Of a stretch of DNA of 64,000 nucleotides, positions 44,884 to 64,000 are shown piece after piece (position 1 is the stretch's first letter; each line of letters starts with the position of its first letter). The notes beneath the pieces are model-generated. The model saw only the letters and a list, made by a program, of their open reading frames with translations. It ran no database searches and was not told where the DNA came from. The translations under genes and the position numbers were made by a program. The stretch is from an uncultured Bacilli bacterium (GTDB lineage: Bacteria > Bacillota_I > Bacilli_A > RF39 > UBA660): contig CAKOOS010000001.1 in NCBI GenBank assembly GCA_934098735.1, forward strand, positions 157,541 through 221,540. The letters run 5' to 3'.

Positions 44884-46080
44884 TTAATTCTTCCTCATTT
44901 CTTCATGTAATTTATTTAAATTCATTTCTATTTTATTATTTTTAGGCTGATAATATTTTCTTCCTTGAAGCTGTTTTGGCATATATTCTTGTTTTACCCA
45001 ATCGTTTGGATAGTTGTGAGGATAAAGGTAATTTGGACTGGATGTTTTTATGTTATCAGGAACATTTCCAGTATTTCCTTTATGGATGTCATTAATTGCT
45101 GCATCTAAAGCTAAGTGAGAACTATTACTTTTTGGCGATAATGCCATTTCTACAACTATTTGTCCTAAAGGAATGCGAGCTTCCGGAAGTCCAACTAATT
45201 CCGCAGCACTAATCGCAGCCATTACACGAGGTCCAATTCCTGGGTTAGCCATGCCTATATCTTCATAAGCAATTACACTTAGACGTCTATATATACTATC
45301 TAAATCTTCAGCTTCAATAAGCCTTGCTAAATAATGTAAAGAAGCATCAACGTCGCTTCCTCTAATGGACTTTTGAAATGCACTTAGTACATCATAATGC
45401 CCATCTTCATTTTTATCATGAAAAAATACTGGTTTGCTATTTATTTTTTTGATATTTTCTATAGATATATTTCCGTCTGAAGTAGAGTAGTAGGCTACTT
45501 CTAATAAATTAAATGCATATCGCATGTCGCCACTTGCTAAAGAGGCAATATAGTTTAATGTTTCATCTTCTACTTTTATATTATCAAAATTTTTTAAACT
45601 TTTTTTAAGTCCTTTAAATATATCTTCTGAATTTAATTCATGAAGTTCAAAAATTTGACATCTACTTCGGATTGCTGGATTTATTTTATGATAGGGATTA
45701 GATGTTGTAAGTCCTATTAAAATTATAGTTCCATTTTCTATATATGGTAGTAATATGTCTTGTTTATCTTTATTCATTCTATGAATTTCATCAATGATTA
45801 AAACTAATTCTCCATAAAATTTAGCTTCTTCAATAGCAGAATCAAAATCACTTTTGTTATTTATTGTGGCATTCATAAACTTATAATGTAAATTAAGTTC
45901 TCCGACAATTGCAGTTGCTAAACTTGTTTTTCCTATTCCTGGTTTGCCATATAAAATCATTGAAAAAATTTTCTTGTTTTTAACAAGATTAGTAATTATT
46001 TTATCATCACCAATTAAATGTTCTTGACCAATAATATCATCTAATTTTTTTGGCCTTAATTTATCTGCTAAAATTTCCAT
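44884..46080 (-). CDS. rarA: replication-associated recombination protein RarA/MgsA (AAA ATPase)
   Basis: Walker A LYGKPGIGKTS, Walker B IIDEIHRMNK, MgsA C-terminal domain. Confidence 0.85.
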   Translation of the reverse strand: MEILADKLRPKKLDDIIGQEHLIGDDKIITNLVKNKKIFSMILYGKPGIGKTSLATAIVGELNLHYKFMNATINNKSDFDSAIEEAKFYGELVLIIDEIHRMNKDKQDILLPYIENGTIILIGLTTSNPYHKINPAIRSRCQIFELHELNSEDIFKGLKKSLKNFDNIKVEDETLNYIASLASGDMRYAFNLLEVAYYSTSDGNISIENIKKINSKPVFFHDKNEDGHYDVLSAFQKSIRGSDVDASLHYLARLIEAEDLDSIYRRLSVIAYEDIGMANPGIGPRVMAAISAAELVGLPEARIPLGQIVVEMALSPKSNSSHLALDAAINDIHKGNTGNVPDNIKTSSPNYLYPHNYPNDWVKQEYMPKQLQGRKYYQPKNNKIEMNLNKLHEEMRKN

Positions 46081-46150
46081 AATATCACGATATAATTATA
46101 GCACAATTGTTTTAAAAGCGATATAATGAATATAGAAATAGGTGAAACTA

Positions 46151-47047
46151 ATGAGAAATATTATTAATGAAGTAAATGATAAAGATGCAATTGATTTTTT
46201 AGAATATTTAAAATATGAAAGAAGAGTTTCTGCAAATACAATTGATTCTTATGGAGAAAATTTAAAATTATTAAATGATACTTTAAATAAACCTTTAATT
46301 ACTTTAAATTCGGATGATATACGAGAATTTCTTACAAATAGTACGGCGACACATAGAACTAAAGCTCATTATTTAACTGTATTTAATTCTTTTTATAAGT
46401 ATTTACTTTTTATGGAAAAAATAAATAAAAATCCTTGTGATGGAATTAAAAGTCCTAAAGTTGCTAAGAAGTTGCCTAATTATTTAACAACTGAAGAAAT
46501 TGATAAACTATTTGATATTCGGCTATATAAACCGTTAGATTATAGAAATAAGGCTATGTTAGAGTTATTATTTGCAACGGGAACAAGAATAAGTGAACTT
46601 ATAAATTTAAAACTTTATCAAATCGACTTTGAAGAATGCATAATAAGAGTTGAAGGAAAAGGAAAGAAAGAAAGAATAGTTCCTGTTGGAAATAGGGCGT
46701 TAAATGCCTTAAATGATTATATTAATATTTATAGACCTTTTTTATTGAAAAAAGAAAATACAGATTTTGTTTTTATAAATAAAGATGGTAAGCCAATAAG
46801 TAGACAAGGATTTTTCAAAATTTTAAAAAAAATAGCTAAAAATGCTGGTATAACAAAAGAAATATCTCCTCATGTTTTGCGACATTCTTTTGCAACACAT
46901 TTACTTAATAATGGGGCTGATCTAAGAGTAATACAAGAACTACTAGGACATGAAAATCTTGAAACTACTCAAATTTATTCTCATTTAAATAACAAAAAAA
47001 TAGAGGATGATTATAATAATCATCCCCATGCACATCTTGAAAACTAA
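46151..47047 (+). CDS. site-specific tyrosine recombinase, XerC/XerD family
   Basis: R...HxxR...Y catalytic pattern HVLRHSFATHLL...LLGHENLETTQIYSHL. AGGTGA RBS before ATG 46151. Confidence 0.8.
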   Translation: MRNIINEVNDKDAIDFLEYLKYERRVSANTIDSYGENLKLLNDTLNKPLITLNSDDIREFLTNSTATHRTKAHYLTVFNSFYKYLLFMEKINKNPCDGIKSPKVAKKLPNYLTTEEIDKLFDIRLYKPLDYRNKAMLELLFATGTRISELINLKLYQIDFEECIIRVEGKGKKERIVPVGNRALNALNDYINIYRPFLLKKENTDFVFINKDGKPISRQGFFKILKKIAKNAGITKEISPHVLRHSFATHLLNNGADLRVIQELLGHENLETTQIYSHLNNKKIEDDYNNHPHAHLEN

Positions 47048-47164
47048 TTAGTCACAGTTTTCAGTACGAGCATTGTTACGTGCTTTAGAATTATTTCTTG
47101 CACTATTAGAAGATTTAGCATTATTTCTTGCTTTGCTTCTAGCGTTTTCTCTAGCTTTGCTCAT
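47048..47164 (-). CDS. unannotated 38-aa basic repetitive small protein (MSKARENARSKARNNAKSSNSARNNSKARNNARTENCD)
   Basis: GGAGGT RBS 11 nt upstream of ATG (rc of 47162-47164). Three A-R-N-N-[AS]-[KR]-[AST] repeats. Convergent with the recombinase gene. Confidence 0.4.
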   Translation of the reverse strand: MSKARENARSKARNNAKSSNSARNNSKARNNARTENCD

Positions 47165-47248
47165 TATTTAATTTACCTCCCATTATTATTATGTATAAGT
47201 TTAATTCTTTTAGTCATATATTTAATGGAAATATAAGGAAGTGAAATT

Positions 47249-47878
47249 ATGAAAATTATCGGAATTACAACGCGTATTTTAACTAATGAAATAGACCAGA
47301 AAATTGAAAAAGTTCCTCATTCACTTATAAATAAAATTACTAATTGTGGTGCTATACCTATAATTATTCCATTTACAGATAAAGAAAAATTAATAGAAAT
47401 AGTGAATCTTTGCGATGGTTTTGTTATTCCTGGAGGGAATACTTGGCATGTTTTGGATGAAATAATTATTAATTATGCTATTAAAAATGATAAACCTCTT
47501 CTTGGAATTTGTGCTGGAATGCAAGCTCTAGGAAATATTCATAATTTTTGTGGAACTAATGATAGTGATCAAAGTGTTTTAATTAATAGCAAAATAAATC
47601 ATTATGATAGTAAGCATGAATATGTTCATGATGTAAATATTACTGGTTCACTTATGAAAAAAATATTGCATAAAGATAGTATTCAAGTTAATAGTAGACA
47701 TCATTATAAAATAGAAAAATATCCGTATTATAATGTGGAAGCTTTAAGTTCAGATGGAATAATTGAAGCTATAAGTTTTCCAAACAAAAAGTTTATTTTA
47801 GGTGTTCAGTGGCATCCAGAAGATTTAAATGATGAAAATAGTGAAAGACTTTTTGAATATTTTATTAATAGTTTATAA
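47249..47878 (+). CDS. class I glutamine amidotransferase-like (peptidase C26 / gamma-glutamyl hydrolase family)
   Basis: Catalytic-Cys motif LLGICAGMQAL and GVQWHPE. Confidence 0.75.
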   Translation: MKIIGITTRILTNEIDQKIEKVPHSLINKITNCGAIPIIIPFTDKEKLIEIVNLCDGFVIPGGNTWHVLDEIIINYAIKNDKPLLGICAGMQALGNIHNFCGTNDSDQSVLINSKINHYDSKHEYVHDVNITGSLMKKILHKDSIQVNSRHHYKIEKYPYYNVEALSSDGIIEAISFPNKKFILGVQWHPEDLNDENSERLFEYFINSL

Positions 47879-48285
47879 TAATTATATCTAAAAAAAATTA
47901 TCCATGGTAAATCTTGGATAGTTTTAATTGTTATTTTCTATTAGCAGTTTTTTTCAATTTTGTCATCATCTTTGGCTTTATTTCTTTTTTTTAATATTTT
48001 AATAAATTCTTCTTTATAGTTTCGATTGCTTAATTCTCTTATATTGTCATTATATATAGCATCACCGTTATTATTTACTAAATCATTAAAATTTTTGTAT
48101 TTGTATGTATTTTTAACTTTTGTTTTTAAATATTCCTTGTTATCACTTAGTTTTTCAAAGATAATTATAACATTAAAATGAGATTTTTAAATAATTTAAA
48201 TTAAAAATGGAGAAGGGGAGAATATTAATATTTTGATAATAATATTATTTAGAAAAAATTTTCATATAAATTAATAAGGTGATTT

Positions 48286-49038
48286 ATGAAAACATTTATT
48301 CCTTTTTTAATATCTACAATTGCAGGTCTTTCAACAATTATTGGGGCTTTATTAATTTTTTTAAAAATCAAAGAAGAAAGATTAAACAAATTTATTAGTT
48401 TTTGTTTAGCTTTTTCGGTAGCAATAATGATAGGAATTAGTGTATTTGATTTAATTCCTACATCTTTTTTTAAAGTTATAAGTTTATATGGTTTTACTAA
48501 AACAAGTTTGCTTTTAATAGTTTCATTTTTATTAAGTTATATAATAATTACAATTCTTATTACTTTAATTAATAAAGATGAAAAAAAAGAAGAATTATAT
48601 CAATTAGGAATTTTGAATATGGTTGTATTGATGCTTCATAATTTGCCAGAAGGTGTTGCAACTTTTTTGAGTAGTTATCATGATATTAATTTAGGAATAA
48701 AACTTAGTATTGCTATTATGCTACATAATATACCAGAGGGTATTGCTATAGCTGTTCCAATATATTATTCAACCCATAGTAAGAAAAAAGCTTTTAATGC
48801 AACAATTATATCTGGACTTTCTGAACCCTTGGGAGCTTTACTTGCTTATTTATTTTTAAAGGACTTTGTAAATGACTTTATTATTAGTATTATTTTAATT
48901 ATTGTAGCAGGCCTTATGATTACATTATCTATTCAAGAGATGTATCCAAAGGCTTTAAAATACCATGAGAAAAGAAGCTTAAAATTGGGATTGTTATTGG
49001 GTTTTATATTAGTCATTTTAAATATTTTCCTTAGTTAA
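48286..49038 (+). CDS. ZIP family metal transporter (second copy in window)
   Basis: HNLPEGVATF and HNIPEGIAIAVP motifs. Polytopic membrane protein. Confidence 0.8.
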   Translation: MKTFIPFLISTIAGLSTIIGALLIFLKIKEERLNKFISFCLAFSVAIMIGISVFDLIPTSFFKVISLYGFTKTSLLLIVSFLLSYIIITILITLINKDEKKEELYQLGILNMVVLMLHNLPEGVATFLSSYHDINLGIKLSIAIMLHNIPEGIAIAVPIYYSTHSKKKAFNATIISGLSEPLGALLAYLFLKDFVNDFIISIILIIVAGLMITLSIQEMYPKALKYHEKRSLKLGLLLGFILVILNIFLS

Positions 49039-49539
49039 ATATAGATAGAGTAGGGATAATAATAAATATTTAAATATTACTTAATTATTAAGAATTATAG
49101 CTTTTTGCAACTTGAAATAAATTCTAAAAAAAAGAATTATTTATTAAACATGTAGTTAAAATTGGTTATTTGGACGTCCTTAGACGTTCAAGTTTTCTTA
49201 TATTACGGTATTTAGATGACCATAATAACCAATATTATTTGCATAATTAAGTTAACATAATATATATTATTTTAAGAATATAATTAATTAATTTTTGGGT
49301 TTTTTAGGTTGTTTTAAAATTAATTTATTATAAGTTTTTTTATCATGCTATTGTACTTTATTTGAAAATTTTAAGAATTTGTATTGATATGAATTACGAA
49401 TTCAATTTATAAATTTATGTTTATATAAATTTAAATTAAAAAATTGTTTTAAATTTAATATTCATGCATCTGTGCTTATAACCTTATTATTATATATAAA
49501 TAAGGTTATATATATATGTAATAACTTTTTGCAAAAGGT

Positions 49540-49583
49540 AAAAAAACTCCCTACTACTTTAAAAAAATTAAGTAGGGGGAGTG
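49540..49583 (-). terminator. rho-independent terminator for the minus-strand operon ending at 49584
   Basis: CTCCCTACT...AGTAGGGGGAG inverted repeat with a T-run on the minus strand. Confidence 0.5.
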
Positions 49584-50537
49584 TTAGTTAATTTTTCTAA
49601 ATATAATTGTTAAAATAGATGCTAAGATAATATCTATTAGTATCTTACTAATTAGTAAATTAATATTTAAAAGATTATAAAGGACATAAATAAAGAAGCT
49701 TGCTAAAACTAATCTAAATATTTTTCTTAATATTAGCTTTAAGTTGTTTTTTATTAAATTGTTTTTATATATCATTTGATAGTTCATAATTATATGTAAC
49801 ACTATCCCTACTACTTCAGATATAGTGTTTGCTATGATAATTCCTTTTAAATCATTAATATCGTTGCGTAAATAAAATATTATTATAAATAATATTAAAG
49901 AAATTAAATAAGGAATAACGGCTTTTAAAACAAAAGGAATTAGACTTTTTAGGTAGGGGATAACTCTTTTGCTACTTTCCCCCACTCTTTTTTCATTTTT
50001 TCGCCAAACTGTCTTTATATTTGTTTCTTTTATTTTAATATTTTGAGACAAAGCTGTAATTAAATAATTACTACTATTTTCTTGAATACTTTTTTCTAAT
50101 TCATTAAACAAATTAGCATTTATTACTTTTAATTCTGGTAATACACTTTTAAAATTAGTGTTAAATAAATTGTTAAATAAAGTATTTACTAAAACTTCAT
50201 TTATAGATACGTTTTCATTTGTACCTAATATTATTTTTTGAGGATTTTTATTTGACTCTTCGCAACATTTTATAATGTCATCGCATACTACATCCACAAT
50301 ATTATCAATAAATACCAGTGTTTGAATATCAGATTTACTATCTAAATAACTGTTTATTTTTGCTAAAGCTGTTTTTTCATTTCCATCAATAATAGAAAAA
50401 TTAGTATCTAAAGCATCTTTACTTTTATTAAATATTATAATATTTTCAAAATAAAGATTTAATTCCTTTAAAGTTTTTTGAAAACGATTAAAATCTCCTT
50501 GATACCAATTTGCAATAATTAAAATACCTTTATTCAT
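49584..50537 (-). CDS. hypothetical protein: ~195-aa cytoplasmic N-terminal domain plus C-terminal 3-4 TM helices
   Basis: Hydrophobic C-terminal third. No catalytic motif recognised. Confidence 0.45.
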   Translation of the reverse strand: MNKGILIIANWYQGDFNRFQKTLKELNLYFENIIIFNKSKDALDTNFSIIDGNEKTALAKINSYLDSKSDIQTLVFIDNIVDVVCDDIIKCCEESNKNPQKIILGTNENVSINEVLVNTLFNNLFNTNFKSVLPELKVINANLFNELEKSIQENSSNYLITALSQNIKIKETNIKTVWRKNEKRVGESSKRVIPYLKSLIPFVLKAVIPYLISLILFIIIFYLRNDINDLKGIIIANTISEVVGIVLHIIMNYQMIYKNNLIKNNLKLILRKIFRLVLASFFIYVLYNLLNINLLISKILIDIILASILTIIFRKIN

Positions 50538-52222: not shown

Positions 52223-53359
52223 TTAGTTTTGTAAATACCATAAAAATTCATTATCATTTTTAACTTTATCTATAAAGCCACAGCCAAGACATTCTTCTCC
52301 TAGATATAAAACACAAGCTTGTCCTGGTGTAACGGCCTTAACTTTTTCTTGAAATTTAACTCTAACTTTATTATTTTCTAAATATTCTAATTCAACAGGA
52401 TGATCTTTATCTCGATAACGAAATTTAGCTGTACAAAAAGTTGGCCTTAAACTAGATATAAAGTTACAATTATCAATTATACATTCATCACTAAGTAAAT
52501 ATTTATTATCTTCACCAAAGGCTACATATAAAATATTTTTTTCAACATTTTTTCCACAAACGTAATGTCTTTTAGAATTTCCAGATATTCCGACATTTCT
52601 TCTTTGACCTATTGTATAATTCATTAATCCAGTATGTCTTCCAATTACTTTTTTAGTGTCAACATCAACAATATCACCAGGATTTGGTTTTAGATAATTT
52701 TCAATGAATTTTTGGTAATTTCTTTCACCGATAAAACAAATACCAGTTGAATCTTTCTTATGAGCAACATTAAGATCATTTTCTTCAGCAATTTTTCTTA
52801 TTTCAGGTTTAGTATAGTCTCCGACTGGAAATAAAACATTTGCAAATTGTTCTTTTTTAACATCAGCTAAAAAGTATGTTTGATCTTTATTTAAATCGAC
52901 ACTTCTTTTTAGTTTTCCATCTTCCAATTTAGCATAGTGACCTGTTGCTACAAAATCTGCTCCAAGCTTTTTGGCTTCTTTTATAAATAAATCAAATTTG
53001 ATAAATTTATTACACAATAAATCTGGATTAGGTGTTCTACCTTTTTTTAATTCTTCTAAAAAATAAGTAAAAACATAATCCCAGTATTCCTTTATAAAAT
53101 CAATACGATGAAGCTTTATTCCTAATTTATTACATAAATTTACTGCATCGTTATAATCTTTTTCTTGAGGACATATATCAGTAAAATCATTTGGATTACC
53201 AAGATAATCACCATTTATATTACTATCCCAGTTTCTCATAAATAATCCTTCAACTTCATATCCTGCATTTTTTAAAAGTAATGCAGCAACAGCAGAATCT
53301 ACTCCACCTGATATTCCAACTATAACTTTTTCCATAAACATCACATACTTAGTATACAT
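52223..53359 (-). CDS. mnmA: tRNA-specific 2-thiouridylase MnmA
   Basis: PP-loop VIVGISGGVDSAVAA and catalytic Cys residues. The start overlaps the upstream stop (TAATG). Confidence 0.85.
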   Translation of the reverse strand: MYTKYVMFMEKVIVGISGGVDSAVAALLLKNAGYEVEGLFMRNWDSNINGDYLGNPNDFTDICPQEKDYNDAVNLCNKLGIKLHRIDFIKEYWDYVFTYFLEELKKGRTPNPDLLCNKFIKFDLFIKEAKKLGADFVATGHYAKLEDGKLKRSVDLNKDQTYFLADVKKEQFANVLFPVGDYTKPEIRKIAEENDLNVAHKKDSTGICFIGERNYQKFIENYLKPNPGDIVDVDTKKVIGRHTGLMNYTIGQRRNVGISGNSKRHYVCGKNVEKNILYVAFGEDNKYLLSDECIIDNCNFISSLRPTFCTAKFRYRDKDHPVELEYLENNKVRVKFQEKVKAVTPGQACVLYLGEECLGCGFIDKVKNDNEFLWYLQN

Positions 53360-53928
53360 TAATTTATTAGAAAATTAAAGATATTAATTATTTTAGCCCC
53401 AGTAAAATATAAAATTACGTCAAAAATAACTATTAAAGCTATAAATATTAGTGCTTTTTTAAATAACAGTATAATTGTTTCTTTATTACTCTTTTTATAA
53501 ATAAAGTAATCAATTATACTTTTAACAATTTTAAATAAAGTTACTAAGAAAAACATTAGTAATATTATAAATATTAATTTGCTAATTATTACATAAATAA
53601 CACCATATAATAAACCCTTTATACCAAATATTATAGTTAAAGAACTAATAATAAATCCTATACTAAATCCATTATAAAATATAAAAAATATATCTAATGG
53701 TGCGCCAATTACAAAAATACTTAAAATAAATAAACTAGCTAAACTTATAAAATGAAGTAATATATTATTAAGTTTTATATTACTTTGTATCATTTCATTA
53801 ATGTTCAAAAAAAGTATTTCTTTTGTAGACTCATCTAATGTTACAACAAATACTATACCAACAACTACACCAATGAATAATAATATACTCATAAATATAT
53901 ACAATCTTTTATTAATGCTTGTCCACAT
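53359..53928 (-). CDS. polytopic membrane protein, SpoIIM/DUF95-like (tentative)
   Basis: Five predicted TM helices at SpoIIM-family size. Translationally coupled to mnmA. Confidence 0.35.
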   Translation of the reverse strand: MWTSINKRLYIFMSILLFIGVVVGIVFVVTLDESTKEILFLNINEMIQSNIKLNNILLHFISLASLFILSIFVIGAPLDIFFIFYNGFSIGFIISSLTIIFGIKGLLYGVIYVIISKLIFIILLMFFLVTLFKIVKSIIDYFIYKKSNKETIILLFKKALIFIALIVIFDVILYFTGAKIINIFNFLIN

Positions 53929-54135
53929 AATATCACCAATTAATTATATTGCAAATTAAATTTTTTTATGATAAATTATTGTTATGATATTTAGAAAAGC
54001 GGTGATAATGTGAATAAAAAAGCTCAAAAAATTATGGTTTGGGTTATGCTAATTGCAATGGTAGCTAGTGTTGTCGTAGGAATTCTTGCTTATATATTAT
54101 AAAAGATAAAAATAACGTAGAAGAAATTCTACGTT

Positions 54136-54891
54136 TTAATATGGAAATAAAAATGATATTAAATTGCTAAATTTATCTATATGAAAATACACAATAAATA
54201 AAGCTCCGACTAGAAATGGTCCATAAGGGAATTCATGCCTATTTTTTAAATGCAAACTTGCAAAAGCATAAGGAAGAGCTAAGAAACTTGAAAGAACTAA
54301 GGCAACTAATGCTAACTTTATATCAAGACATAAACCAATTATAAAACATAGTTTTATATCACCTCCACCTAATGATTCCTTTTTCAAAATAAATGATCCA
54401 ATTTCTTCAATTAAAAGCATAATAAGAAACATTGATATGCCTGATAAAATACTAAAAATACCAGTTTTAAATCCACTATATATTATTTTTATTATTATGA
54501 TTAAAACACCAGATATAATTAGAGATGAATCTAATATTATCATATATTTAAAATCACTTACGAAGATAATAACCATTAATGAAACAATAATGAGAGATAT
54601 TAAAAATTCTTCACCAAAAGGAAAATATAAATAAGATAATAAAAATAAAAACCCTGTGATTAATTCTACCCAAAAATGTTCACTATTTATTTTACTTTTA
54701 CAATTAGAACATTTACCTTTTTGGATTATATACGAAATTAAAGGAATTAAATTATACCACTTTAATTCCTTTTTACATGTATCACATCTGCTTCGAGAAA
54801 ATATAATATCTTCGTTTAATGGAAGTCTTGTTCCTACTACTAAATAAAATGAACCTAAAATTGTTCCTAATATAAACATAAATATTGCCAT
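54136..54891 (-). CDS. type IV prepilin peptidase (A24 family, PilD/ComC-like)
   Basis: N-terminal zinc-binding CxxC...CxxC (CDTCKKELKWYNLIPLISYIIQKGKCSNCKS). Polytopic membrane region with conserved Asp residues. Confidence 0.8.
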   Translation of the reverse strand: MAIFMFILGTILGSFYLVVGTRLPLNEDIIFSRSRCDTCKKELKWYNLIPLISYIIQKGKCSNCKSKINSEHFWVELITGFLFLLSYLYFPFGEEFLISLIIVSLMVIIFVSDFKYMIILDSSLIISGVLIIIIKIIYSGFKTGIFSILSGISMFLIMLLIEEIGSFILKKESLGGGDIKLCFIIGLCLDIKLALVALVLSSFLALPYAFASLHLKNRHEFPYGPFLVGALFIVYFHIDKFSNLISFLFPY

Positions 54892-54898
54892 ACTTCAC

Positions 54899-56464
54899 CT
54901 ATCCATTTTGTATTTGGGCGTACATATCAAACATTGGTACTATAACAGCTATAATAATTGCACCTACAACAAGAGCTAAAATAGATATCATAATAGGTTC
55001 TATAAATGATTTTAAACTATTGATAATATTTTTATGTAATAGTTGATAATATTCACTAACCTTTTGCATCATGTTTGCTAAATCTCCAGTTGATTCGCCA
55101 GTGACAATCATATAATATGCAACATCAGGTACTGCCCAATGATCCTTAAATGCTTCACTAATTTTTTCCCCTTTTACTATATTATTAATTGTTTTATATA
55201 AAATTGCTTTGTAAATTTCGTTATTTGTTATTCGGCTTAAGATATCCATACTATCAGTAATAAATACATTATTTCTTAATAATGAAGCAAATGTCTTAGA
55301 AAATATTGTAAGTTCATTATAAATGATAACATTTTTAACTATTGGTAAATGCATAAGAAAAATTTGCATACTTGTTCTAAACGCTTTGACGGTTTTATAG
55401 AGAACAACAATTATTAAAATTATTAAGATTATTACTAATAAAAATGTTAACCAGTTATTTTTCAAAAAAGTACTTATATCAATAACAAGTTTTGTCATAC
55501 CTGTTATTTTTGTACCATTTGCATCGTAAATTTCTATAAATTTTGGAACTACATATAGCAAAATAAAAGTTATTACGCCAATTGAAAAAACAGTTATTAT
55601 AGCTGGGTAAGTCATGGCACTTACCATTTGTTTATGAGTTTCATTTATTTCCGTATAATATGCAGCCATATCATCAAGAGTCTCAACTAAAGTACCACTA
55701 GCTTCAGCTGCTTTAATCATATTTACAAGCAATGCAGGAAACATATTTCCTTGTTTTTCTAAAGCTTTAGAAAATGATTCTCCTAAAGTTAGTTCATAAG
55801 AAATAGCTTTAAATGCCGTAGTTCGAGATTTATTTCCTTTCATTTGAGTTGTAAGAATTTTTATTGATTCATTTAATGTAAGACCTGCCTTAATATAAGT
55901 TGATAACTGAGTTAACCAAAATATAAGATCTTTTGTTGACATCTTTTTTCCAAAAAAACTTGTATCTTTATACAATAAATCAATCATTGGAGAGGTTTTT
56001 ATAGAGTAAACAATATATCCTTCATTTAATAAATAAGAATTTATATCTAATTTACTTAAACCATTCATAGTACCAGTTATTATTTTCCCAGTTGTATCTT
56101 TTACTTTATAATAATATACATGTGGTTCTTTAGTTCGTGTTGCCCCAGAAGTTTGTAAATCAATAAGAAGCATTTTTCTTTCTTCTTCTAATTTAGCTAG
56201 TAATTTGGGACTGTATTTATAAACTTTTTCTTTTTTTGGCTTTTTCTTTGTTCTTTCATATATTTTTTCTTCATCTGCCATGAAGGCCTGCTTAGTTGCT
56301 TCATAAGTTCTGCTTACACGATAACTTGTTCCATTGTATAAGTCAGCCCAAAAATCAAACCCTAAAAACTTTATTCCAACTAAAGCATAGGTAACTATAT
56401 TATAGAGAATAACAAATGGACTTTTTAATATGTCTATGAATTTTTTGGAATTAGTTGCTTCCAT
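54899..56464 (-). CDS. type II secretion system F-family platform protein (PilC/GspF-like)
   Basis: Two T2SSF-domain repeats, each with 3 TM segments. Extended N-terminus, so the true start may be internal. Confidence 0.75.
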   Translation of the reverse strand: MEATNSKKFIDILKSPFVILYNIVTYALVGIKFLGFDFWADLYNGTSYRVSRTYEATKQAFMADEEKIYERTKKKPKKEKVYKYSPKLLAKLEEERKMLLIDLQTSGATRTKEPHVYYYKVKDTTGKIITGTMNGLSKLDINSYLLNEGYIVYSIKTSPMIDLLYKDTSFFGKKMSTKDLIFWLTQLSTYIKAGLTLNESIKILTTQMKGNKSRTTAFKAISYELTLGESFSKALEKQGNMFPALLVNMIKAAEASGTLVETLDDMAAYYTEINETHKQMVSAMTYPAIITVFSIGVITFILLYVVPKFIEIYDANGTKITGMTKLVIDISTFLKNNWLTFLLVIILIILIIVVLYKTVKAFRTSMQIFLMHLPIVKNVIIYNELTIFSKTFASLLRNNVFITDSMDILSRITNNEIYKAILYKTINNIVKGEKISEAFKDHWAVPDVAYYMIVTGESTGDLANMMQKVSEYYQLLHKNIINSLKSFIEPIMISILALVVGAIIIAVIVPMFDMYAQIQNG

Positions 56465-56562
56465 AATAACCCATCCTTTACTCTATTTAAGTATATCAAA
56501 TAAATCTTTTTAATACAATCAATAATTTTTATTTTTTTCATATAATTATATAGGTGGTTATA

Positions 56563-56835
56563 ATGTTTGGCTCAAATATAACTGGCAGCTCTTTAAGCCT
56601 TTCTAAAATTTTAAGTGGTATTTCTAAAGCTTTAAATATAGCTAATCAGGCCATACCTATTTATAAAGAGATTAAACCAATTGCTCAGAATGCTCGAAAG
56701 ATTATGGGTGTATTAAAAGAATTTAATTCAAGTAGTGATTCTAAGCCTCAAAAAAATATAAAAGAAAATAAAAGCATAGAAAAAAAAGAAGTAAAAATGA
56801 TTTCTACTTCTTCTAAGCCAGTTTTTTTTCAATAA
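56563..56835 (+). CDS. hypothetical 90-aa protein divergent from pilC
   Basis: AGGTGG RBS before ATG 56563. The 3-prime end overlaps the trmK stop region. Could be spurious. Confidence 0.3.
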   Translation: MFGSNITGSSLSLSKILSGISKALNIANQAIPIYKEIKPIAQNARKIMGVLKEFNSSSDSKPQKNIKENKSIEKKEVKMISTSSKPVFFQ

Positions 56836-57418
56836 CATTAATATATTTTAGATACTTTAAATTCTTTGATTTACTAAATAATATTTTGTATTTATTTAAT
56901 AAATAATTTAAGTATTCTAAATTATTACTTTTTCCTAGTAGTATATCTTCTTCAGTTAAATTTTCTTTTCCTTTGGTATATTTTATAATGTCATAATAAA
57001 TCTCTTTTTCTTTTACAATTATTTCTTTTTCAACTTTATAACCAATACTATTTATAAATATTCTTAAGTCTGGTATGTTATTATGACTACATACAATTAT
57101 TTTTTTAGGTAAATTTTTTACACTAAGAATTTTTTTTATTGTTGATGATCCCATTCCTGTAATTATAGCAATATCATATTTTCCTGATAAATTTTTAAAT
57201 CCATCACTTTCTATTAATTCTATCTTATCTTCTAAATTATTTTTAATTAAATTCTTAGCACTATATTTTAGTACTTCTTTAGATATATCACTTGCTGTTA
57301 TAAACTTAGTTATATTATTTTGATATAAATATATTGGTAAATAAGCATGATCTGTTCCAATATCTACTACTTTAGAATTTGCATCTACTAAAGATGCAAT
57401 AGCTTGTATTCTTTTCAT
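56813..57418 (-). CDS. trmK: tRNA (adenine22-N1)-methyltransferase TrmK (YqfN-like)
   Basis: SAM motif VVDIGTDHAYLPIYL. Position directly downstream of sigA, as in B. subtilis. Confidence 0.75.
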   Translation of the reverse strand: MKRIQAIASLVDANSKVVDIGTDHAYLPIYLYQNNITKFITASDISKEVLKYSAKNLIKNNLEDKIELIESDGFKNLSGKYDIAIITGMGSSTIKKILSVKNLPKKIIVCSHNNIPDLRIFINSIGYKVEKEIIVKEKEIYYDIIKYTKGKENLTEEDILLGKSNNLEYLNYLLNKYKILFSKSKNLKYLKYINVIEKKLA

Positions 57419-58524
57419 TATTCTTCTAAGAAGTCTTTAAGCTTTTTAGCACGAGATGGATGACGAAGTTTTCGTAAAGCTTTGGCTTCAATTTGTCTTA
57501 TTCTTTCTCTGGTTACATTAAACTTTTTACCAACTTCTTCAAGAGTATGACATGTTCCATCAATCAAACCAAAACGTAATTCTAAAACTTCTTGTTCACG
57601 AGCTTGAAGAGACATTAATACTTCCTTTATTTCTTCTTTTAAAATCTCATTTTCTGTATATTCTTCAGGTGATAAACTTGATTCATCTTTAAGAAAATCC
57701 CCTAAATGTGAATCTTCTTCTTCACCAATCGGAGTTTCAAGAGATACTGGTTCTTGGCTTATTTTCATTACTTCTCTTACCTTTTCTACTCCTACTCCCA
57801 TTTTCTTGGCAATTTCTTCTTCGCTAGGTTCACGATTTAATTCTAGAGTAAGTTGTCTTTGAACTCTAGACATTTTATTAATTGTTTCAACCATGTGAAC
57901 TGGAACACGAATTGTTCTTGCTTGATCAGCTAAAGCTCTAGTTATAGCTTGTCTAATCCACCATGTTGCATAAGTTGAAAATTTATATCCTTTATCGTAG
58001 TCAAATTTTTCAACTGCTTTCATTAATCCAATGTTTCCTTCTTGAATTAAATCTAAAAATAGTAGCCCACGTCCAACATATCTCTTAGCAATAGAAACTA
58101 CTAAACGTAAATTAGATTCTGCTAAGATTCTTTTTGCTTCAGGATCATCGTCTGCAACCCTTTTAGATATTTCCATTTCTTCTTCACTTGAAAGTAGTGA
58201 AATTCTTCCTATTTCTTTTAAATACATTCTAACTGGATCATTGATATTTATATCTTTTGTAATATCTTCATCACTAAGTATAACTGTTTCTTCTTCTAAT
58301 TTTTCTTTTATTTTTGCTTCCCCGGTTGATTCATCAATATCAGCTTCTGCCACAACAGAAATACTATTATCTACAAGTTTATTATATAGATTATCTAAAG
58401 CATCATTGTCAATATCTAATCCTTTTAATTCTAAGGCTAATTCTTCATAGGTTATAAAGCCTTTTTCTTTTCCTTTTTGTATTAAAGTATTTTCTCTTTC
58501 TTCTAATGTTTTAATTTGTTCCAT
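57418..58524 (-). CDS. sigA: RNA polymerase primary sigma factor
   Basis: Regions 1.2 to 4.2, including the [20 protein letters not shown] region and the region 4 HTH. Confidence 0.9.
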
Positions 58525-58527
58525 TAT

Positions 58528-60261
58528 TCACACTTCCTTTTTAATTTCTGTCAACTTTTCCATCAACGCTATTTTCTTATTTATATCCATTTCCATTTTA
58601 ATTTTAGCTTTAAGATTCGTAATTTCTTCCTGCTTATAAATTTTTAATATCGCTTCTAGACATGAATTAAACTCATCATCGCTAATGACAGTATTTCCAT
58701 TTTCACTCATAATTATTTGCAAAAATGCAAGCACTTCTTCATTATTTCTTACAAATGTCAAAAAATCAGCAATATCGATATTTCCATGTACACTTTCATA
58801 ATATACTATTTCACTAGCTAAAATTCTCTCTATTTTTTCTTTAAAATATCCCAAGCGTTTTTTGTAAATTGCAATGTATTTATTACTAAAAAGCATATAG
58901 TATAATACTTTATGACTTGCCTTTTGATATTTTGTAACTTTATCTTGGCTACTTAAATTCATTTTTCTTTGGGGAGAAACATTATCTCTTTTTAAGCCAG
59001 ATTTTAAAGTTTCTATATCAACGGCATAATCTTTGCTTATTTTAGATATAACTAAGTCTTTTGTCAAGTCATCTTGATCATTTAAACTATTTATTACTTC
59101 TTTTACATAAATTATTAAATCTTCTAGATTATTAAGATTCTTGTTTTGTTTTAAGTATTCTATCTTAAAATCAATGTATTTTATAGCATGATCAATATTA
59201 TCTTGCATAGCTTTAATACCATTTGCTTCAATATATTCATCAGGATCTTTTTCTCCGCTTAATCTAACTACTTTAACTATTACACCAGCACTTTGAAGTA
59301 TTTCACCATTTTTAACCGTAGCTTCAAGACCAGCATTATCATTATCAAGCATCAATATGACAGGCATCTTCAATTTTTTTAAAATTTCAACATGTTCTTT
59401 AGATAAAGCTACTCCCATCAAGGCTACGACATTTTTAATTCCTTTAGCACTTAATTTTATAGCATCCATATTTCCTTCGACAACTATAACACTTTTAGCA
59501 TCTCTAATGTATTTTTTGGCATTATGATAATTAAATAAGATACTTCCTTTTTTAAATATTTCTGTTTCTTTCGTATTTAAGTACTTAGCTGTATTGTTTT
59601 CGCCATTAAATATTCTTCCAGTAAATCCTACCACTGATCCTTTTACATCTTCAATTGGGATTACTATTCTATTTATAAATGTATCATATATGTTAGCTCC
59701 CACTTTGTTTATTAAACCTAATTTATCTAAAATTTCAATATTCCATTTTTTATTTTGACATAATTTAAAAAATGTATCAGGACTGTTATTGGCAAGCCCT
59801 ATATTAAATTCTTTAATTATATCTTCTGTAATGCCTCTTTTTCTTAGATATTCGCGAGCTTTTATACCATCATCTGTAAACATATTATTTAAGTAGTATT
59901 TTGTGGCAAAATCATATATTTGATAATCTTCATCATATTTACTTTTTTCTATATTAACAAAATTATTAATATTTAAATTATACCCAATTTTGTTAGCTAC
60001 AATTTTTAAGGCTTCAGGAAAACTAACATTTTCATATTTCATTACAAATGTAAATACATTACCACCAGTTCGGCATGTAAAACAATTAAATATTTGTCTT
60101 TCTCTAGAAATTACTAATGAAGGAGAATGATCATCGTGAAATGGACATACTGCAACAAAATTTTTTCCTTTAGAAGTAACATTTAAATAACTAGAAACAA
60201 TGTCAACAATGTCAGCACGGCTTCTTATTTCGTTTATTTCTTCGTCTTTAATATACGCCAT
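58528..60261 (-). CDS. dnaG: DNA primase
   Basis: Zinc ribbon CPFHDDHSPS, TOPRIM domain, C-terminal DnaB-binding region. GAGGGGA RBS before ATG (rc of 60259-60261); the track start 60297 is likely an upstream extension. Confidence 0.9.
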   Translation of the reverse strand: MAYIKDEEINEIRSRADIVDIVSSYLNVTSKGKNFVAVCPFHDDHSPSLVISRERQIFNCFTCRTGGNVFTFVMKYENVSFPEALKIVANKIGYNLNINNFVNIEKSKYDEDYQIYDFATKYYLNNMFTDDGIKAREYLRKRGITEDIIKEFNIGLANNSPDTFFKLCQNKKWNIEILDKLGLINKVGANIYDTFINRIVIPIEDVKGSVVGFTGRIFNGENNTAKYLNTKETEIFKKGSILFNYHNAKKYIRDAKSVIVVEGNMDAIKLSAKGIKNVVALMGVALSKEHVEILKKLKMPVILMLDNDNAGLEATVKNGEILQSAGVIVKVVRLSGEKDPDEYIEANGIKAMQDNIDHAIKYIDFKIEYLKQNKNLNNLEDLIIYVKEVINSLNDQDDLTKDLVISKISKDYAVDIETLKSGLKRDNVSPQRKMNLSSQDKVTKYQKASHKVLYYMLFSNKYIAIYKKRLGYFKEKIERILASEIVYYESVHGNIDIADFLTFVRNNEEVLAFLQIIMSENGNTVISDDEFNSCLEAILKIYKQEEITNLKAKIKMEMDINKKIALMEKLTEIKKEV

Positions 60262-60355
60262 AATCTTCCCCTCAAAATGATAAATCAGTTGTCCCAAAAA
60301 TCGAAGTTATTATACCACTTTTTTAATCAATTTGCAAACAAAAAAAGTCTATATT

Positions 60356-61216
60356 TTACATTTTAAGACTTTTTTTGATAAAGATATTATTTAATAGTGC
60401 ATAAATCAAGCTAAATATTGTTACACTTATAATCATTCCCGTATAAAAGCTTATATATTTGGTTAAGAAAAAACCTACTGTAGAAGTAATTAGACCGTAT
60501 ATTATCCTATTTTTTTTAAGTAGTGGACTAGTACTGTTCCAAGGCATTATTATAATTAAAGCAAATATAGCATTTCCATTATATAAAAAATTTAAATCAT
60601 GAAAAAGGATTGCTAAAACCACATATATAATAAGGCCACTTACACTAATGCTAGTTTTATAACAAGTTTTTATTGATAATAATATAGTTAAAATAATGCC
60701 ATAAATAATTAATGTTGATCCTAGTCCTCCAATATTTCTTCCAAATAATAAATCTAGCGAGTTAAAAGCATAAATATTTAAACTTTCAGCTGGGTTTAAA
60801 AAACTTAAATGAGAAAATAAATGTAAAACTAATGTTATGAAGGAAATAGTTAGGGCTATATTAGGTAAATCTATATTTTTAAGGCTTAAATAAATTATGC
60901 TTCCTATTATAATTGCTATTATATACAGAATAAAATTTATACTATATGGCATGAAAAGTGGAATAATAAATAAAGACAATAAATAGAAATCTATTTGCAT
61001 TTTTTTTCTAAATACTTTGCAACATAAAAAATAAGCTATTATTCCTATTAAAGCTAAAAAAGGAAGCTTAAAAATACTTATAAAATTAATTAAATTTTTT
61101 GTATATAATAATACTCCATTTTTATAAATACCATATAGATATAAAGGAATTAAGGCTAAAATGTAAATTATAACATTTTCTTTAATTTCTTTTTTAGCAT
61201 GCATATAGACATTCAT
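60356..61216 (-). CDS. polytopic membrane protein, RnfD/NqrB-like (tentative)
   Basis: About 8 TM helices. GGLGSTL segment reminiscent of the RnfD YGGLG region and NSTSPLL reminiscent of the S-x-A-T-P-L flavin-site loop. 2-nt gap to the upstream RnfC-like gene. Confidence 0.35.
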   Translation of the reverse strand: MNVYMHAKKEIKENVIIYILALIPLYLYGIYKNGVLLYTKNLINFISIFKLPFLALIGIIAYFLCCKVFRKKMQIDFYLLSLFIIPLFMPYSINFILYIIAIIIGSIIYLSLKNIDLPNIALTISFITLVLHLFSHLSFLNPAESLNIYAFNSLDLLFGRNIGGLGSTLIIYGIILTILLSIKTCYKTSISVSGLIIYVVLAILFHDLNFLYNGNAIFALIIIMPWNSTSPLLKKNRIIYGLITSTVGFFLTKYISFYTGMIISVTIFSLIYALLNNIFIKKSLKM

Positions 61217-61218
61217 TT

Positions 61219-62322
61219 CTATCTTCCTTTCAACCTATTTCTAAAACAAATTCTAGCTGGACAAATATAGCTACATAATCCACAATCGAGGCATTTCTTT
61301 TTATTTTTTAATGTAAGTGGATTAACATTTTCTGGGCATATCTCTATACATTTTCCACAATTTATGCATTTATTTGAAATTACATTTGTCTTTTTCATTA
61401 TATTGATACTTTTAATATCTTTTGTAATTACAAAATCATCCACTCCATTTAATTTAAACCCTGTCATTAACCCATTTATAATTACTTCATAATCATTTTC
61501 TGTAATTTCAATATACTTGGTTACAAGAGCACTTAAAAGCGTATTTTCCTTTAATCTAAAAACTTTATTTTCTTTTATAGCATTTCCTGAAACCGTAATG
61601 ATCATAGTTGTAGAAATATTTGCTTTAAGTAAATCATTTATTTCTAAAATATCTTCAACTGTTAAATATAAACAGTTATTTTTTAAAGAAAGTTTTTCTG
61701 TTAAGTACCTTTCGTTTTCAAGTAAATACTCATCATTAACAAGTGTTAGTTTAATCTTTGGATAAGTTCCAATTACTTTAAGACATTCATCTATTATGAA
61801 AGCTTCATTATTTTTAATTATAAGCAAATTATTATCACTTTTATATATAATACTTAAACTTTCTATAAGTTCTAAAATGTCATCTATATTTTCTTTTAGT
61901 AAAAATATTTTATTATATACGTATGGATTATCATTAATATTACTTACTATGATAGTATCAAATGTTTTACTACTTTTAAATTTGTTAAATAATCTAGGAT
62001 TTTCTTCTATTAATTTTAGTAAATTGGGAATATTTAATTTTATCTTTTTTTTATCTTTTTCTTTGTTCATTTCCCTAAAATCATTTTCTATAACTAAAGT
62101 ATTTTGTTTTTTATTAAGAACATTACACTTCTTAATTCCAAGTACTTTTCCAGATACTGGTGAATAAATATTTTCACTAACCATTTGCCATTTATATACA
62201 AGATCATTTTCTTTAACGATAATATTTTTAACTGGTATATAAACATAATCTGGATTTAAAAAATAAGTTATTGTTGTTGGTGGCAAAATACTTTTATCTT
62301 TTTCTAACTTAATTAGATGCAT
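61219..62322 (-). CDS. RnfC-like protein: N-terminal RnfC_N barrel plus two C-terminal 4Fe-4S ferredoxin motifs, Gly-rich NAD/FMN motif absent
   Basis: IPVKN...VKENDLVYKWQ...IYSPVSGKVLGI parallels RnfC N-terminus (IPLKQH..VGDKVLRGQ..HAPTSGTVTAI). DTIIVSNINDNPYVYNK parallels ETLIINAAECEPYITAD. Two CxxCxxCxxxCP motifs, CINCGKCIEICP and CLDCGLCSYICP. No GLGGAGFP-type motif. Confidence 0.5.
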   Translation of the reverse strand: MHLIKLEKDKSILPPTTITYFLNPDYVYIPVKNIIVKENDLVYKWQMVSENIYSPVSGKVLGIKKCNVLNKKQNTLVIENDFREMNKEKDKKKIKLNIPNLLKLIEENPRLFNKFKSSKTFDTIIVSNINDNPYVYNKIFLLKENIDDILELIESLSIIYKSDNNLLIIKNNEAFIIDECLKVIGTYPKIKLTLVNDEYLLENERYLTEKLSLKNNCLYLTVEDILEINDLLKANISTTMIITVSGNAIKENKVFRLKENTLLSALVTKYIEITENDYEVIINGLMTGFKLNGVDDFVITKDIKSINIMKKTNVISNKCINCGKCIEICPENVNPLTLKNKKKCLDCGLCSYICPARICFRNRLKGR

Positions 62323-64000
62323 CTTTCTTCCTTTCTTCTAAGTATCTTTGAAGACTTATAGCTACTTTTTCTGGTAACATTTCTTTTAACTCTTCTAAAC
62401 TTGCTTCACTAATTTTTTTAATGCTGCCATATTTTTTTATAAGTTCTTTTTTACGCATTTTACCAATGCCATCAATATTATCTAGAATACTTCCTATACT
62501 TCCTTTATCTCGCAAAGCTTTATGATAGGTTATTGTATATCTATGCACTTCATCTTGAATTCTAGTTAAATAATGAAAAACATCACTGGTGCGAGGTATA
62601 TCAATTACTTCTAGGGTATCTCCATCTACTAATTCATTAGTTCGGTGATGGTTATCTTTTCGAAGGCCACAAACTTTAATATTAAGTTTAAGTTCATCTA
62701 GAACACTTTTACAAGCATTAATTTGACTTACTCCCCCATCTACTAAAATTAAATCTGGAAGTTCTAATTTGTCAACAAGACATCTATAATATCTGCGATA
62801 TACAACTTCTTTCATCGTATTATAATCATCATTTTTGTCTACTGTAACTTTGTATTTTCGGTATTCATTTTTGGCTGGCCTTCCATTTTTAAATACTACC
62901 ATACCTGATACAGCAAATGTTCCAAAAAGATTGGAATTATCAAAGGATTCAATTCTATCTAAAACTTTTAATGAAAGTAAATTTTTTAATTCTTCATTAG
63001 CTAAAACACTTCTTTTTTCGTCATTTTTTATAATTTTTAACTCTTGTTCTAGACTAATTTTAGCGTTTACTTTGGCCATATCAAGTAAGTTTTTCTTTTT
63101 TCCTTTATAAGGAATATATACTTTAGTATTTAAAATGCTACTTATTATTTCAAAATTAAGATTCTCTTCAACTAATATTTCTTTAGGAATTTCATGTCTT
63201 TCATAAAATTTTAAAATATAAGAGTTAACTTCGTCTAAAACATCACTCATCAAATAAAATAAATCATTGTTACCGCCGACAATTTTACCATTTCTAACAA
63301 AAAGTATTTGCACAGATACTAATCCTTCATCATAATAATACGATATAACGTCTCGATTAACATAATCATGAAGTTCTACTTTTTGTTTATCTAAAATAAC
63401 TTTTATATAGTCTAACTCTTTTTTTAATTCCATGGCAGACTCAAAATTTAAGTTTGCACTAAAAACATTGATTTTTTCTAATATTTTATCAATTAGTATT
63501 TTATCATTTCCTTTTAAAAATTCTATTATATCTTTTTCCATTTTAGCAAGTTTTTCTTGATCAACATTTCTTTCACAATATCCTAAGCATTCATCTATAT
63601 GATAGTATAAGCAAACATGTTTTGGCATACCTTCACACTTCTTTAATGGATACAATCTATTAATTAAATTTACTATTTTGCGAGCTGCATAGGCATTCGG
63701 ATATGGTCCAAAAAGAAGTTTTTTATCTTTTTTACGAATATTTAAATACCTTGATACTTTTAATCTTGGATATGGCTTGGAAATATATTCGATATATGGA
63801 TACGATTTATCATCTTTAAGCAAAATATTGTATTTAGGATCATATTCTTTTATTAAATTTAGTTCTAAAATAAATGCTTCTTGTTCCGTTTGGGTAGTTA
63901 TATAAGTAAAATCTACTACTTCACTTACCATTTTAGCAGTTTTACCAGTTACATTTCCTTTAAAATAACTATTTACTCTTTTATATAAATCTTTGGCTTT
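62309..64000 (-). CDS. uvrC: excinuclease ABC subunit C, N-terminally truncated by window end
   Basis: GIY-YIG region (KAKDLYKRVNSYF, EAFILELNLIKEYDPKYN), UvrBC-interaction and RNase H-like/HhH C-terminal domains. Frame stays open to base 64000. Confidence 0.85.
   Translation of the reverse strand, partial: KAKDLYKRVNSYFKGNVTGKTAKMVSEVVDFTYITTQTEQEAFILELNLIKEYDPKYNILLKDDKSYPYIEYISKPYPRLKVSRYLNIRKKDKKLLFGPYPNAYAARKIVNLINRLYPLKKCEGMPKHVCLYYHIDECLGYCERNVDQEKLAKMEKDIIEFLKGNDKILIDKILEKINVFSANLNFESAMELKKELDYIKVILDKQKVELHDYVNRDVISYYYDEGLVSVQILFVRNGKIVGGNNDLFYLMSDVLDEVNSYILKFYERHEIPKEILVEENLNFEIISSILNTKVYIPYKGKKKNLLDMAKVNAKISLEQELKIIKNDEKRSVLANEELKNLLSLKVLDRIESFDNSNLFGTFAVSGMVVFKNGRPAKNEYRKYKVTVDKNDDYNTMKEVVYRRYYRCLVDKLELPDLILVDGGVSQINACKSVLDELKLNIKVCGLRKDNHHRTNELVDGDTLEVIDIPRTSDVFHYLTRIQDEVHRYTITYHKALRDKGSIGSILDNIDGIGKMRKKELIKKYGSIKKISEASLEELKEMLPEKVAISLQRYLEERKKDASN

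Follow-up and report, generated by a model that had tools for sequence, protein, structure and literature searches.

The closest described systems to the locus considered here are the Rnf ferredoxin:NAD+ oxidoreductase, the NQR complex, and the two-subunit Nqr/Rnf-like complexes of Huang et al. 2024 (PMC11334425). In solved Rnf, the N-terminal arm of the membrane subunit RnfD is cytoplasmic, lies buried in RnfC, and anchors it (PMC9588780). Among the lineages of concern here, a published survey reported that only Izemoplasmatales and a wastewater group have preserved Rnf, and described RF39 and RFN20 as fermenters with pyruvate:ferredoxin oxidoreductase (PFOR), [FeFe]-hydrogenase, and a ferredoxin-based metabolism (PMC7301438). 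We analyzed a 64-kb stretch of DNA (the window; G+C ~25%) from an uncultured Bacilli bacterium of the RF39 lineage (contig CAKOOS010000001.1, positions 157,541 to 221,540). Two adjacent minus-strand genes in it encode an RnfC-derived protein of 367 amino acids (aa), here called C′ (61219..62322), and a polytopic membrane protein of 286 aa, D′ (60356..61216), which has the RnfD/NqrB fold and lacks flavin sites. With moderate confidence, we interpret C′D′ as a version of the RnfC-RnfD sub-complex that is specific to its lineage, has lost cofactor sites, and would act, anchored in the membrane and with two clusters, as a relay for electrons or as a redox sensor. What this composite reading says about structure and evolution is, taken alone, very likely to be right.

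Relationship of C′ and D′ to RnfC and RnfD

The two open reading frames (ORFs) had been called RnfC- and RnfD-like in a first-pass annotation made by eye from the sequence, and the agreement between profile and fold matches establishes both as true Rnf relatives. C′ matched the rnfC model TIGR01945 with an E-value of 1.2e-22, its 80 bits not reaching the curated cut-off of 245.95, and likewise scored below the cut-offs of the RsxC model NF003454 (54.8 versus 345 bits), the NqrA model TIGR01936 (17.5 versus 321), Complex1_51K (19.6 versus 31.2) and, only just, PF13375 (25.3 versus 25.6). Fer4 Pfam matches fell at its cysteine motifs, and the PDB chain of Clostridium tetanomorphum RnfC (7zc6_C) was matched with an E-value of 1.7e-20. 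An AlphaFold (AF2) model of C′ built from 27 family members reached a predicted local distance difference test score (pLDDT) of 92, and its closest PDB folds were the RnfC chains 9eri_C and 7zc6_C (template modelling score, TM, 0.82), followed by NqrA (~0.61) and then by NuoF-type subunits. In this model, C′ has kept the RnfC fold, with an N-terminal barrel, a NuoF-like core without the NADH/flavin mononucleotide (FMN) site, and a C-terminal domain predicted to hold two [4Fe-4S] clusters.

D′ contains a single Pfam domain, PF03116, which it matched with 49.8 bits (cut-off 27.7), and its score against the equivalog NF041838 was 15.9 bits, far below the cut-off of 400. Searching D′ against PDB RnfD sequences with phmmer gave only an E-value of 0.38, which is too weak, and the fold search decided the matter. 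The D′ model (pLDDT 87.7) had RnfD/NqrB chains as its only significant matches (TM 0.74-0.78; 9eri_D 0.77, 8ad0_B 0.78), and in it D′ retains the RnfD/NqrB fold of 10 helices together with the region of the N-terminal arm. That the membrane protein might be unrelated to RnfD/NqrB, a concern raised with the first annotation, is contradicted by the above-threshold PF03116 match and by this fold.

Lost and retained motifs

C′ and D′ were aligned with canonical RnfC and RnfD of related uncultured Bacilli and of Escherichia coli (RsxC in the case of C′), and D′ was mapped onto the C. tetanomorphum RnfD structure using a canonical RnfD of the same Bacilli group as a bridge. The correspondences previously drawn by eye for TVSGNAI, NDNP(Y), GGLGSTL, and STSP were reproduced in these alignments: TVSGNAI pairs with VTVTGDAI of C. 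tetanomorphum RnfC, and, in D′, GGLGSTL aligns with PGxxGETS and STSP with DPVTSP. The Gly-rich motif of RnfC is lost from C′, as had been claimed, but it was not substituted by KFKSSKTF. Residues 101-121 (61960..62022, minus strand) occupy the place of the RnfC GxGGxGFPT, nine residues are deleted after E107, and KFKSSKTF falls a few residues downstream of the expected GxGGxGFP. NDNPY (residues 130-134; 61921..61935, minus strand) does replace the ECEPY of RnfC/NuoF, the consensus of the C′ family at this position being DEPY. Both ECEP and the Gly-rich motif (sought as the regular expression G.GG..FP) were missing from all 72 window-type C′ sequences.

The two C-terminal CxxCxxCxxxCP motifs of C′ are present as originally reported and span C319-P330 (61333..61368, minus strand; with a Fer4 match) and C344-P355 (61258..61293, minus strand). 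Both are invariant in the 27-sequence family alignment, where all eight cluster cysteines lie among 25 invariant columns, and both were matched in every full-length window-type C′.

Residues 139-150 of D′ (FLNPAESLNIYA; 60767..60802, minus strand) mark, in the alignments, the site of a deleted extracytoplasmic linker that in RnfD carries the covalent-FMN threonine, and the column of this residue (Thr153 in the TATPL/SGAT loop of C. tetanomorphum RnfD) is a gap in 64 of 64 aligned D′ sequences. Of the GGFGxNxFNPA motif, the GGxGxN portion has also gone, and GGFGxN, the FMN-threonine motif, and TDPVT were all missing from D′ in 72 of 72 loci. At the position of Glu185 there is never a Glu (0/64) and most often a Ser or Thr (50/64). 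W226 (60539..60541, minus strand) stands where RnfD has the strictly conserved Asp248 of its riboflavin/Na+ site; this Asp is kept in 21 of the 64 sequences, and Asn124 in 58. The best-conserved part of D′ is its N-terminal arm region (K8, LIPL, YKNG).

D′ also has conserved polar residues that are peculiar to it (N94, N141, E144, D155, R160, and K187), and these can be cited for a reading in which D′ is a channel, transporter, or other non-redox membrane protein and C′ its cytoplasmic Fe-S regulatory or gating subunit. RnfD and NqrB are built, like urea and ammonium transporters, on an inverted repeat of five helices (PMC9588780), and the matches to the D′ model that came after RnfD/NqrB were to urea and Amt transporters, at non-significant values (E ~1, TM 0.33-0.39). 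This transporter likeness is architectural only, the residues of the RnfD constriction and Na+ site are not conserved in D′, and the gene context suggests no transporter-type neighbours or substrates, so that we consider this reading unlikely.

Absence of further Rnf subunits

The window had been reported to contain no RnfG, RnfE, RnfA, or RnfB gene, and our tblastn searches agreed. Neither E. coli RsxA, RsxB, RsxG, and RsxE nor RnfE, RnfA, a partial RnfB, and an RnfG domain from related Bacilli found a match in the window or in 72 related loci (L001-L072), and there were no FMN_bind matches near D′. Pfam scans covered most of the window (ORF batches over 116-53359 and three ORFs at 53359-56835) and returned no ApbE and no ferredoxin among the ORFs, only housekeeping and pilus-type genes such as mutS, lon, tgt, relA, aminoacyl-tRNA synthetases, and gatCAB.

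These searches bear on whether C′ and D′ could be ordinary subunits of a canonical Rnf whose other genes lie elsewhere or were lost in assembly or binning. One homologue bears the name 'electron transport complex protein RnfC' at the JGI, which can be counted in favor of such an arrangement. Against it, the defining cofactor motifs are missing from both proteins throughout the family, the NCBIfam scores are far below the cut-offs (80 versus 246 and 15.9 versus 400), and the same two-gene layout occurs in at least 70 species, on contigs of up to 377 kb, with A, E, G, or B never within 6 kb of the pair. Rnf has, moreover, been reported as preserved only in the Izemoplasmatales and the wastewater group among these lineages. 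We regard a canonical Rnf as highly improbable, and the initial judgement that the pair is not an ion-pumping Rnf is borne out by the motif losses in 72 C′ and 64 aligned D′ sequences together with the lack of A/E/G/B genes nearby. The naming matters in practice, as pipelines label these proteins RnfC/RnfD or '4Fe-4S binding protein', and on such labels RF39/RFN20-type gut bacteria could be wrongly credited with a partial Rnf pump.

Conservation, selection, and gene fusions

C′ homologues numbered 556 in the protein database, and a scan of one genome per species returned at least 547 loci. The best 80 of these all came from uncultured gut 'Bacilli', 'Tenericutes', 'Mycoplasma sp. CAG:776', or Erysipelotrichales metagenome-assembled genomes; several records titled Muribaculaceae look like binning errors. 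A D′ profile recovered ~175 clusters (50% identity) at E <= 1e-30 among 1.84 billion representatives. In genomes of more than 70 species of uncultured Bacilli from the gut ("Tenericutes", CAG:776-like), the two genes lie side by side and undisrupted, and the ORFs are intact in every full-length locus. Relative to a 98%-identical strain, the ratio of nonsynonymous to synonymous substitution rates (dN/dS) was 0.15 for C′ and 0.21 for D′, values that derive from small counts; medians over species pairs were 0.19 for C′ and 0.13 for D′, similar to the 0.15 of dnaG and the 0.12 of uvrC, and the overall range for the pair was 0.04-0.27. Identities among relatives were 30-58% for C′, 25-48% for D′, 56-84% for UvrC, and 73-95% for SigA.

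The two genes are tightly coupled, being separated by no more than 9 nt in all 66 measurable loci and neighbouring each other in essentially every locus that reaches beyond C′. In addition, three of the D′-profile clusters consist of single polypeptides in which C′ is followed by D′: P0217 (612 aa; three cluster members, on 4+1+1 contigs), P0297 (689 aa; two cluster members), and P0313 (705 aa), which has lost part of the second cysteine motif. The first two recur in several independent assemblies. Topologically, such a fusion makes sense, since in RnfD the N-terminal arm is on the cytoplasmic side and embedded in RnfC. The existence of natural fusions argues that C′ and D′ act as one unit.

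With dN/dS values of ~0.1-0.2, invariant cluster cysteines, tight coupling, and fusions, the pair is maintained by purifying selection and has been repurposed instead of decaying, in keeping with the module first proposed. The term 'degenerate' used in that proposal describes the cofactor motifs well, but not the genes as a whole, which are under purifying selection. Decay into a non-functional relic might be argued from the loss of several catalytic motifs and from the faster evolution of C′ and D′ relative to UvrC and SigA. Such a relic would not be expected to show intact ORFs in every full-length locus, dN/dS of 0.04-0.27, or 25 invariant columns in C′ that include the eight cluster cysteines, nor to persist in small genomes across deep divergence, and we find this explanation very hard to credit. 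Pseudogene and misassembly readings were both rejected given dN/dS, conservation, and repeated synteny.

Probable origin by reduction of Rnf

Loci from related Bacilli form a graded series. Two of them, L074 ('UBA660') and L081, have a full operon with RnfC, RnfD fused to one or two RnfG-type FMN_bind domains, RnfE, RnfA, and RnfB. Three (L073, L079, and L082) have RnfC and an RnfD-G fusion only, and one (L083) has RnfC and an RnfD without the G domain; most or all cofactor motifs were matched in these four. A decaying NADH site was found in L075 and L080, where the Gly motif reads GLSGSGQKT / GLSGNGFPT and ECEP is kept, and in L076-L078, which have GMSGNDYPT and ESEP/ESES. These last five loci have a short RnfD (255-287 aa) without the flavin loop and represent independent, intermediate steps in the decay of Rnf. 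The same 173-aa gene (cluster c72) lies upstream of the L076 pair and of the L074 full operon, an arrangement that suggests decay in situ.

In a neighbor-joining (distance) tree, computed without support values, all window-type C′ sequences fell into one clade, sister to a clade that comprised the full operons (L074, L081), the RnfC + RnfD-G pairs, and two separately degenerating lineages. Comparable loss has thus taken place in at least two or three separate lineages of this Bacilli group. An insertion containing YKNG is common to D′ and the canonical RnfD of these Bacilli and absent from clostridial RnfD, which points to descent of D′ from a local Rnf. The presence of full Rnf or of intermediates in sister lineages identifies C′D′ as a product of reductive evolution, which in these uncultured, low-GC Bacilli of the gut very probably began from a complete Rnf operon.

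The two-gene RnfC + RnfD-G modules were located at 5995-9082 in L079 (OW818670.1, a complete 1.49-Mb chromosome), 5929-8701 in L082, and 5953-8651 in L073, each with a fully motif-intact RnfC; no RnfE, RnfA, or RnfB lay beside them within ~4-6 kb, and pilin-like genes lie downstream in L079. A chain from NADH to FMN, the two [4Fe-4S] clusters, FMN in the D subunit, and FMN on the outside can be drawn from these motifs, and the modules could be extracytosolic electron-transfer modules.

Gene junctions and transcription

The minus-strand gene order in the window is uvrC, C′, D′, dnaG, sigA, and trmK. The uvrC gene (62309..64000), whose homologues in related loci have UvrC Pfam domains, has its 5′ end outside the window; the 540-aa uvrC ORF listed for the window begins at an internal start, and the gene runs past the window end. 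A frameshift or another genetic code was ruled out as the cause of this truncated ORF, which reflects only the window edge. Downstream of D′ lies a housekeeping block made up of dnaG (58528..60261), sigA (57418-58524), and trmK (56813-57418). The stop codon of uvrC ends at 62309 and the ATG of C′ lies at 62322, which gives an overlap of 14 nt. The C′ stop TAG at 61219-61221 is followed, after a 2-nt spacer, by the D′ ATG at 61216, so that overlap and spacer agree with those first noted. Ribosome-binding sequences of the GGAAG type are visible by eye ahead of both starts.

A promoter-like sequence, TTGCAA-17-TGgTATAAT (60309..60337, minus strand), is present in the gap between D′ and dnaG as a consensus match only. 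Matches of this kind in the region were not above chance (56, compared with 45.4 +/- 6.0 expected), and the scan for promoters and terminators found no terminators in the region; this TG-extended site is, by its sequence, the sole match that seems worth remark and is not statistically supported. The earlier suggestion of co-transcription with both repair and replication genes divides accordingly into two parts. Two observations support co-transcription of C′ with uvrC, namely the overlap of the genes and an order kept in 34 of 66 loci, while co-transcription of the pair with dnaG is doubtful because of the promoter-like site between D′ and dnaG. On the same ground, C′D′ would most simply be the last part of a transcription unit that starts with uvrC, and dnaG-sigA would have a transcript of their own.

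Neighbourhood and the association with DNA repair genes

Of 66 loci, 34 have uvrC directly upstream of C′, 33 of them at a distance of no more than 73 nt, and the arrangement extends down to ~30% C′ identity. A second, rearranged context has an AP_endonuc_2 (endonuclease-IV-like) gene directly upstream (11/66), such that a repair nuclease gene precedes the pair in 45 of 66 loci and about one third are without one; in 5 loci, a divergent PilB-type ATPase is upstream of the pair. On the other side, 41 of 70 loci have dnaG (with sigA-trmK) among the first five genes downstream of D′. Of the position between uvrC and dnaG that the first-pass annotation highlighted, the uvrC link and the dnaG link are each broken in many lineages, unlike the C′-D′ link.

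The window UvrC has a cysteine-rich motif, C-x7-C-x3-H-x3-C-x3-C (63575..63637, minus strand), which fits the published UvrC Fe-S consensus CX6-14CX3H/QX3CX3C (PMC10085695). C′D′ might thus be a redox partner or sensor for DNA-repair nucleases, for example one that keeps the UvrC [4Fe-4S] cluster reduced or couples repair to redox or oxidative stress, in parallel to Rsx, SoxR, and nth of E. coli. Besides the UvrC motif, the overlap of the uvrC stop with the C′ start and the upstream repair genes (34/66 and 11/66) can be brought forward in support, as can two features of E. coli: nth, which encodes the Fe-S repair enzyme endonuclease III, immediately follows rsxABCDGE in K-12 (L085, 1705767-1712158), and Rsx reduces SoxR (PMC12174285). 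Several observations weigh on the other side. Roughly one locus in three has no repair gene upstream, and the pairs of L075-L080, which degenerated independently, adjoin neither uvrC nor an endonuclease-IV-like gene. Endonuclease IV is a zinc enzyme and not an Fe-S protein. Because trxA-uvrC and dnaG-sigA-trmK are old Bacilli synteny blocks, the uvrC adjacency may be merely inherited, and a membrane anchor is not obviously useful to a repair partner. We consider a repair-nuclease partner decidedly unlikely, and the narrower proposal that C′D′ was recruited to repair, and sets or reads the redox state of the [4Fe-4S] cluster in UvrC or couples repair nucleases to oxidative stress, quite improbable. 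Inherited synteny probably accounts for most of the neighbourhood pattern, with a functional repair link as a minority hypothesis. Were recruitment true, it would explain the nuclease gene immediately upstream in 45 of 66 loci and would provide a Gram-positive counterpart to the connection of rsx with nth and of Rsx with SoxR in E. coli, which is itself unexplained.

Independently of these considerations, E. coli rsx-nth is a second Rnf-type locus that abuts a DNA-repair nuclease gene.

Proposed role

In the electron relay or redox sensor that we favor, C′ and D′ would form a membrane-bound heterodimer in which D′ serves mainly to anchor C′ at the cytoplasmic face through its N-terminal arm, much as RnfC is anchored by RnfD and NqrA by NqrB. 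C′ would act as a tethered, ferredoxin-like two-[4Fe-4S] module that exchanges electrons one at a time with a soluble carrier of low potential, for which reduced ferredoxin made by PFOR is the most plausible candidate in these fermenters, and would either pass them to a putative acceptor at or in the membrane or report the redox state. The electron-entry role that had been suggested for the pair is a plausible candidate. By virtue of sitting in the uvrC transcription unit, C′D′ would be expressed with uvrC and would not necessarily serve DNA repair. Because the NADH/FMN site, the flavin sites, and four other subunits are missing, both NADH oxidation and ion pumping would be precluded.

Some points temper this proposal. 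Asn124 is kept in 58 of 64 D′ sequences and Asp248 in a third, so that non-covalent flavin, and hence trans-subunit electron transfer, is possible in some members. D′ may equally have a role of its own, such as that of a channel. The complex between C′ and D′ is deduced from homology, gene coupling, and fusions, and its electron donor and acceptor are putative only. Our search covered the window and the related neighbourhoods, and an Rnf operon or partner may lie elsewhere in the genome.

The loci provide a graded natural series within one bacterial group, from full Rnf through RnfC + RnfD-G and forms with a decaying NADH site to the stripped C′D′. The series shows which parts of Rnf/NQR can stand alone and parallels the origin of the cofactor-free NqrA. 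A strongly conserved protein, predicted to be membrane-tethered and to hold two clusters, in widespread and very reduced gut genomes also constitutes a defined target for biochemistry.

Other features of the window

A prepilin peptidase gene (54136-54891) and a PilC-like T2SSF gene (54899-56464), of the type IV pilus or competence type, lie a few genes from C′D′. Pilins or a PilB-type ATPase also occur beside the pair in other arrangements (L022-type, L019-type, and L079; clusters c12, c14, c18, and c25), and the proximity of pilus genes to C′D′ reflects either regional synteny or a functional association. A small YqfQ-like ORF on the plus strand (56554-56835) is antisense to trmK and overlaps its end, and many related loci have it at the equivalent place (cluster c10).

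GC skew and gene orientation flip at ~44000-50500, with a peak of cumulative GC skew at ~48-50 kb and a GC minimum of 0.21 there, and a gene for a XerC/D-type recombinase is located at 46142-47047; this part of the window looks like a replication terminus (dif) region. The product of the ORF at 1537-2979 is a surface protein that combines a thioester domain (TED) with SpaA/SdrD-type folds and is likely a covalent adhesin; two ORFs without a Pfam match precede this ORF. A gene for a HerA-like DUF87 ATPase (40188-42098) lies between ORFs that also have no Pfam match (39710-40171 and 42195-42995), and the region 39710-42995 may be a small defence or DNA-translocation module.

Comparison with known systems

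Our literature searches returned no description of the C′D′ pair, the nearest report being that of a different Nqr/Rnf-like complex (PMC11334425), and C′D′ differs in a defining feature from RnfCD, NqrAB, and the two-subunit Nqr/Rnf-like complexes. With RnfC-RnfD of Rnf (7zc6, 9eri, 8ahx) it has in common the folds (TM 0.82 for C′ and 0.74-0.77 for D′), the two CxxCxxCxxxCP motifs, the RnfD N-terminal arm region, and a gene order of C then D with translational coupling. It departs from them in that C′ lacks the NADH/FMN site, D′ lacks the covalent-FMN threonine, GGxGxN, and Glu185 and is variable at Asp248, and no RnfG, RnfE, RnfA, or RnfB partner is encoded beside the pair. Given these missing sites and partners, C′D′ would be without ferredoxin:NAD+ chemistry and without ion pumping.

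NqrA-NqrB offers a precedent for an RnfC homologue without NADH/FMN function that is still bound to an RnfD-type membrane subunit. The two pairs differ in what each has kept, since NqrA lost both Fe-S clusters and C′ keeps both motifs, whereas NqrB keeps covalent FMN and riboflavin and D′ does not. The fold of C′ is also nearer to RnfC (TM 0.82) than to NqrA (~0.61), and NQR, with six subunits, has four further ones, while no nqr genes accompany C′D′.

The Nqr/Rnf-like complexes of Huang et al. 2024 resemble C′D′ in having two subunits and an RnfD-like domain without the flavinylation threonine. In those complexes, an NAD-binding PF00175 domain is fused C-terminally to the RnfD-like domain and the partner is an RnfG/NqrC-like flavinylated extracytosolic subunit (PMC11334425). 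Both of these are missing from C′D′, in which a separate RnfC-like Fe-S subunit is present instead. Nearest in sequence, and probably of the ancestral type, is the canonical Rnf with an RnfD-RnfG fusion of L074 ('UBA660') and L081, which shares the YKNG insertion with D′ and, unlike C′D′, has all cofactor motifs, FMN_bind fused to RnfD, and RnfE, RnfA, and RnfB downstream.

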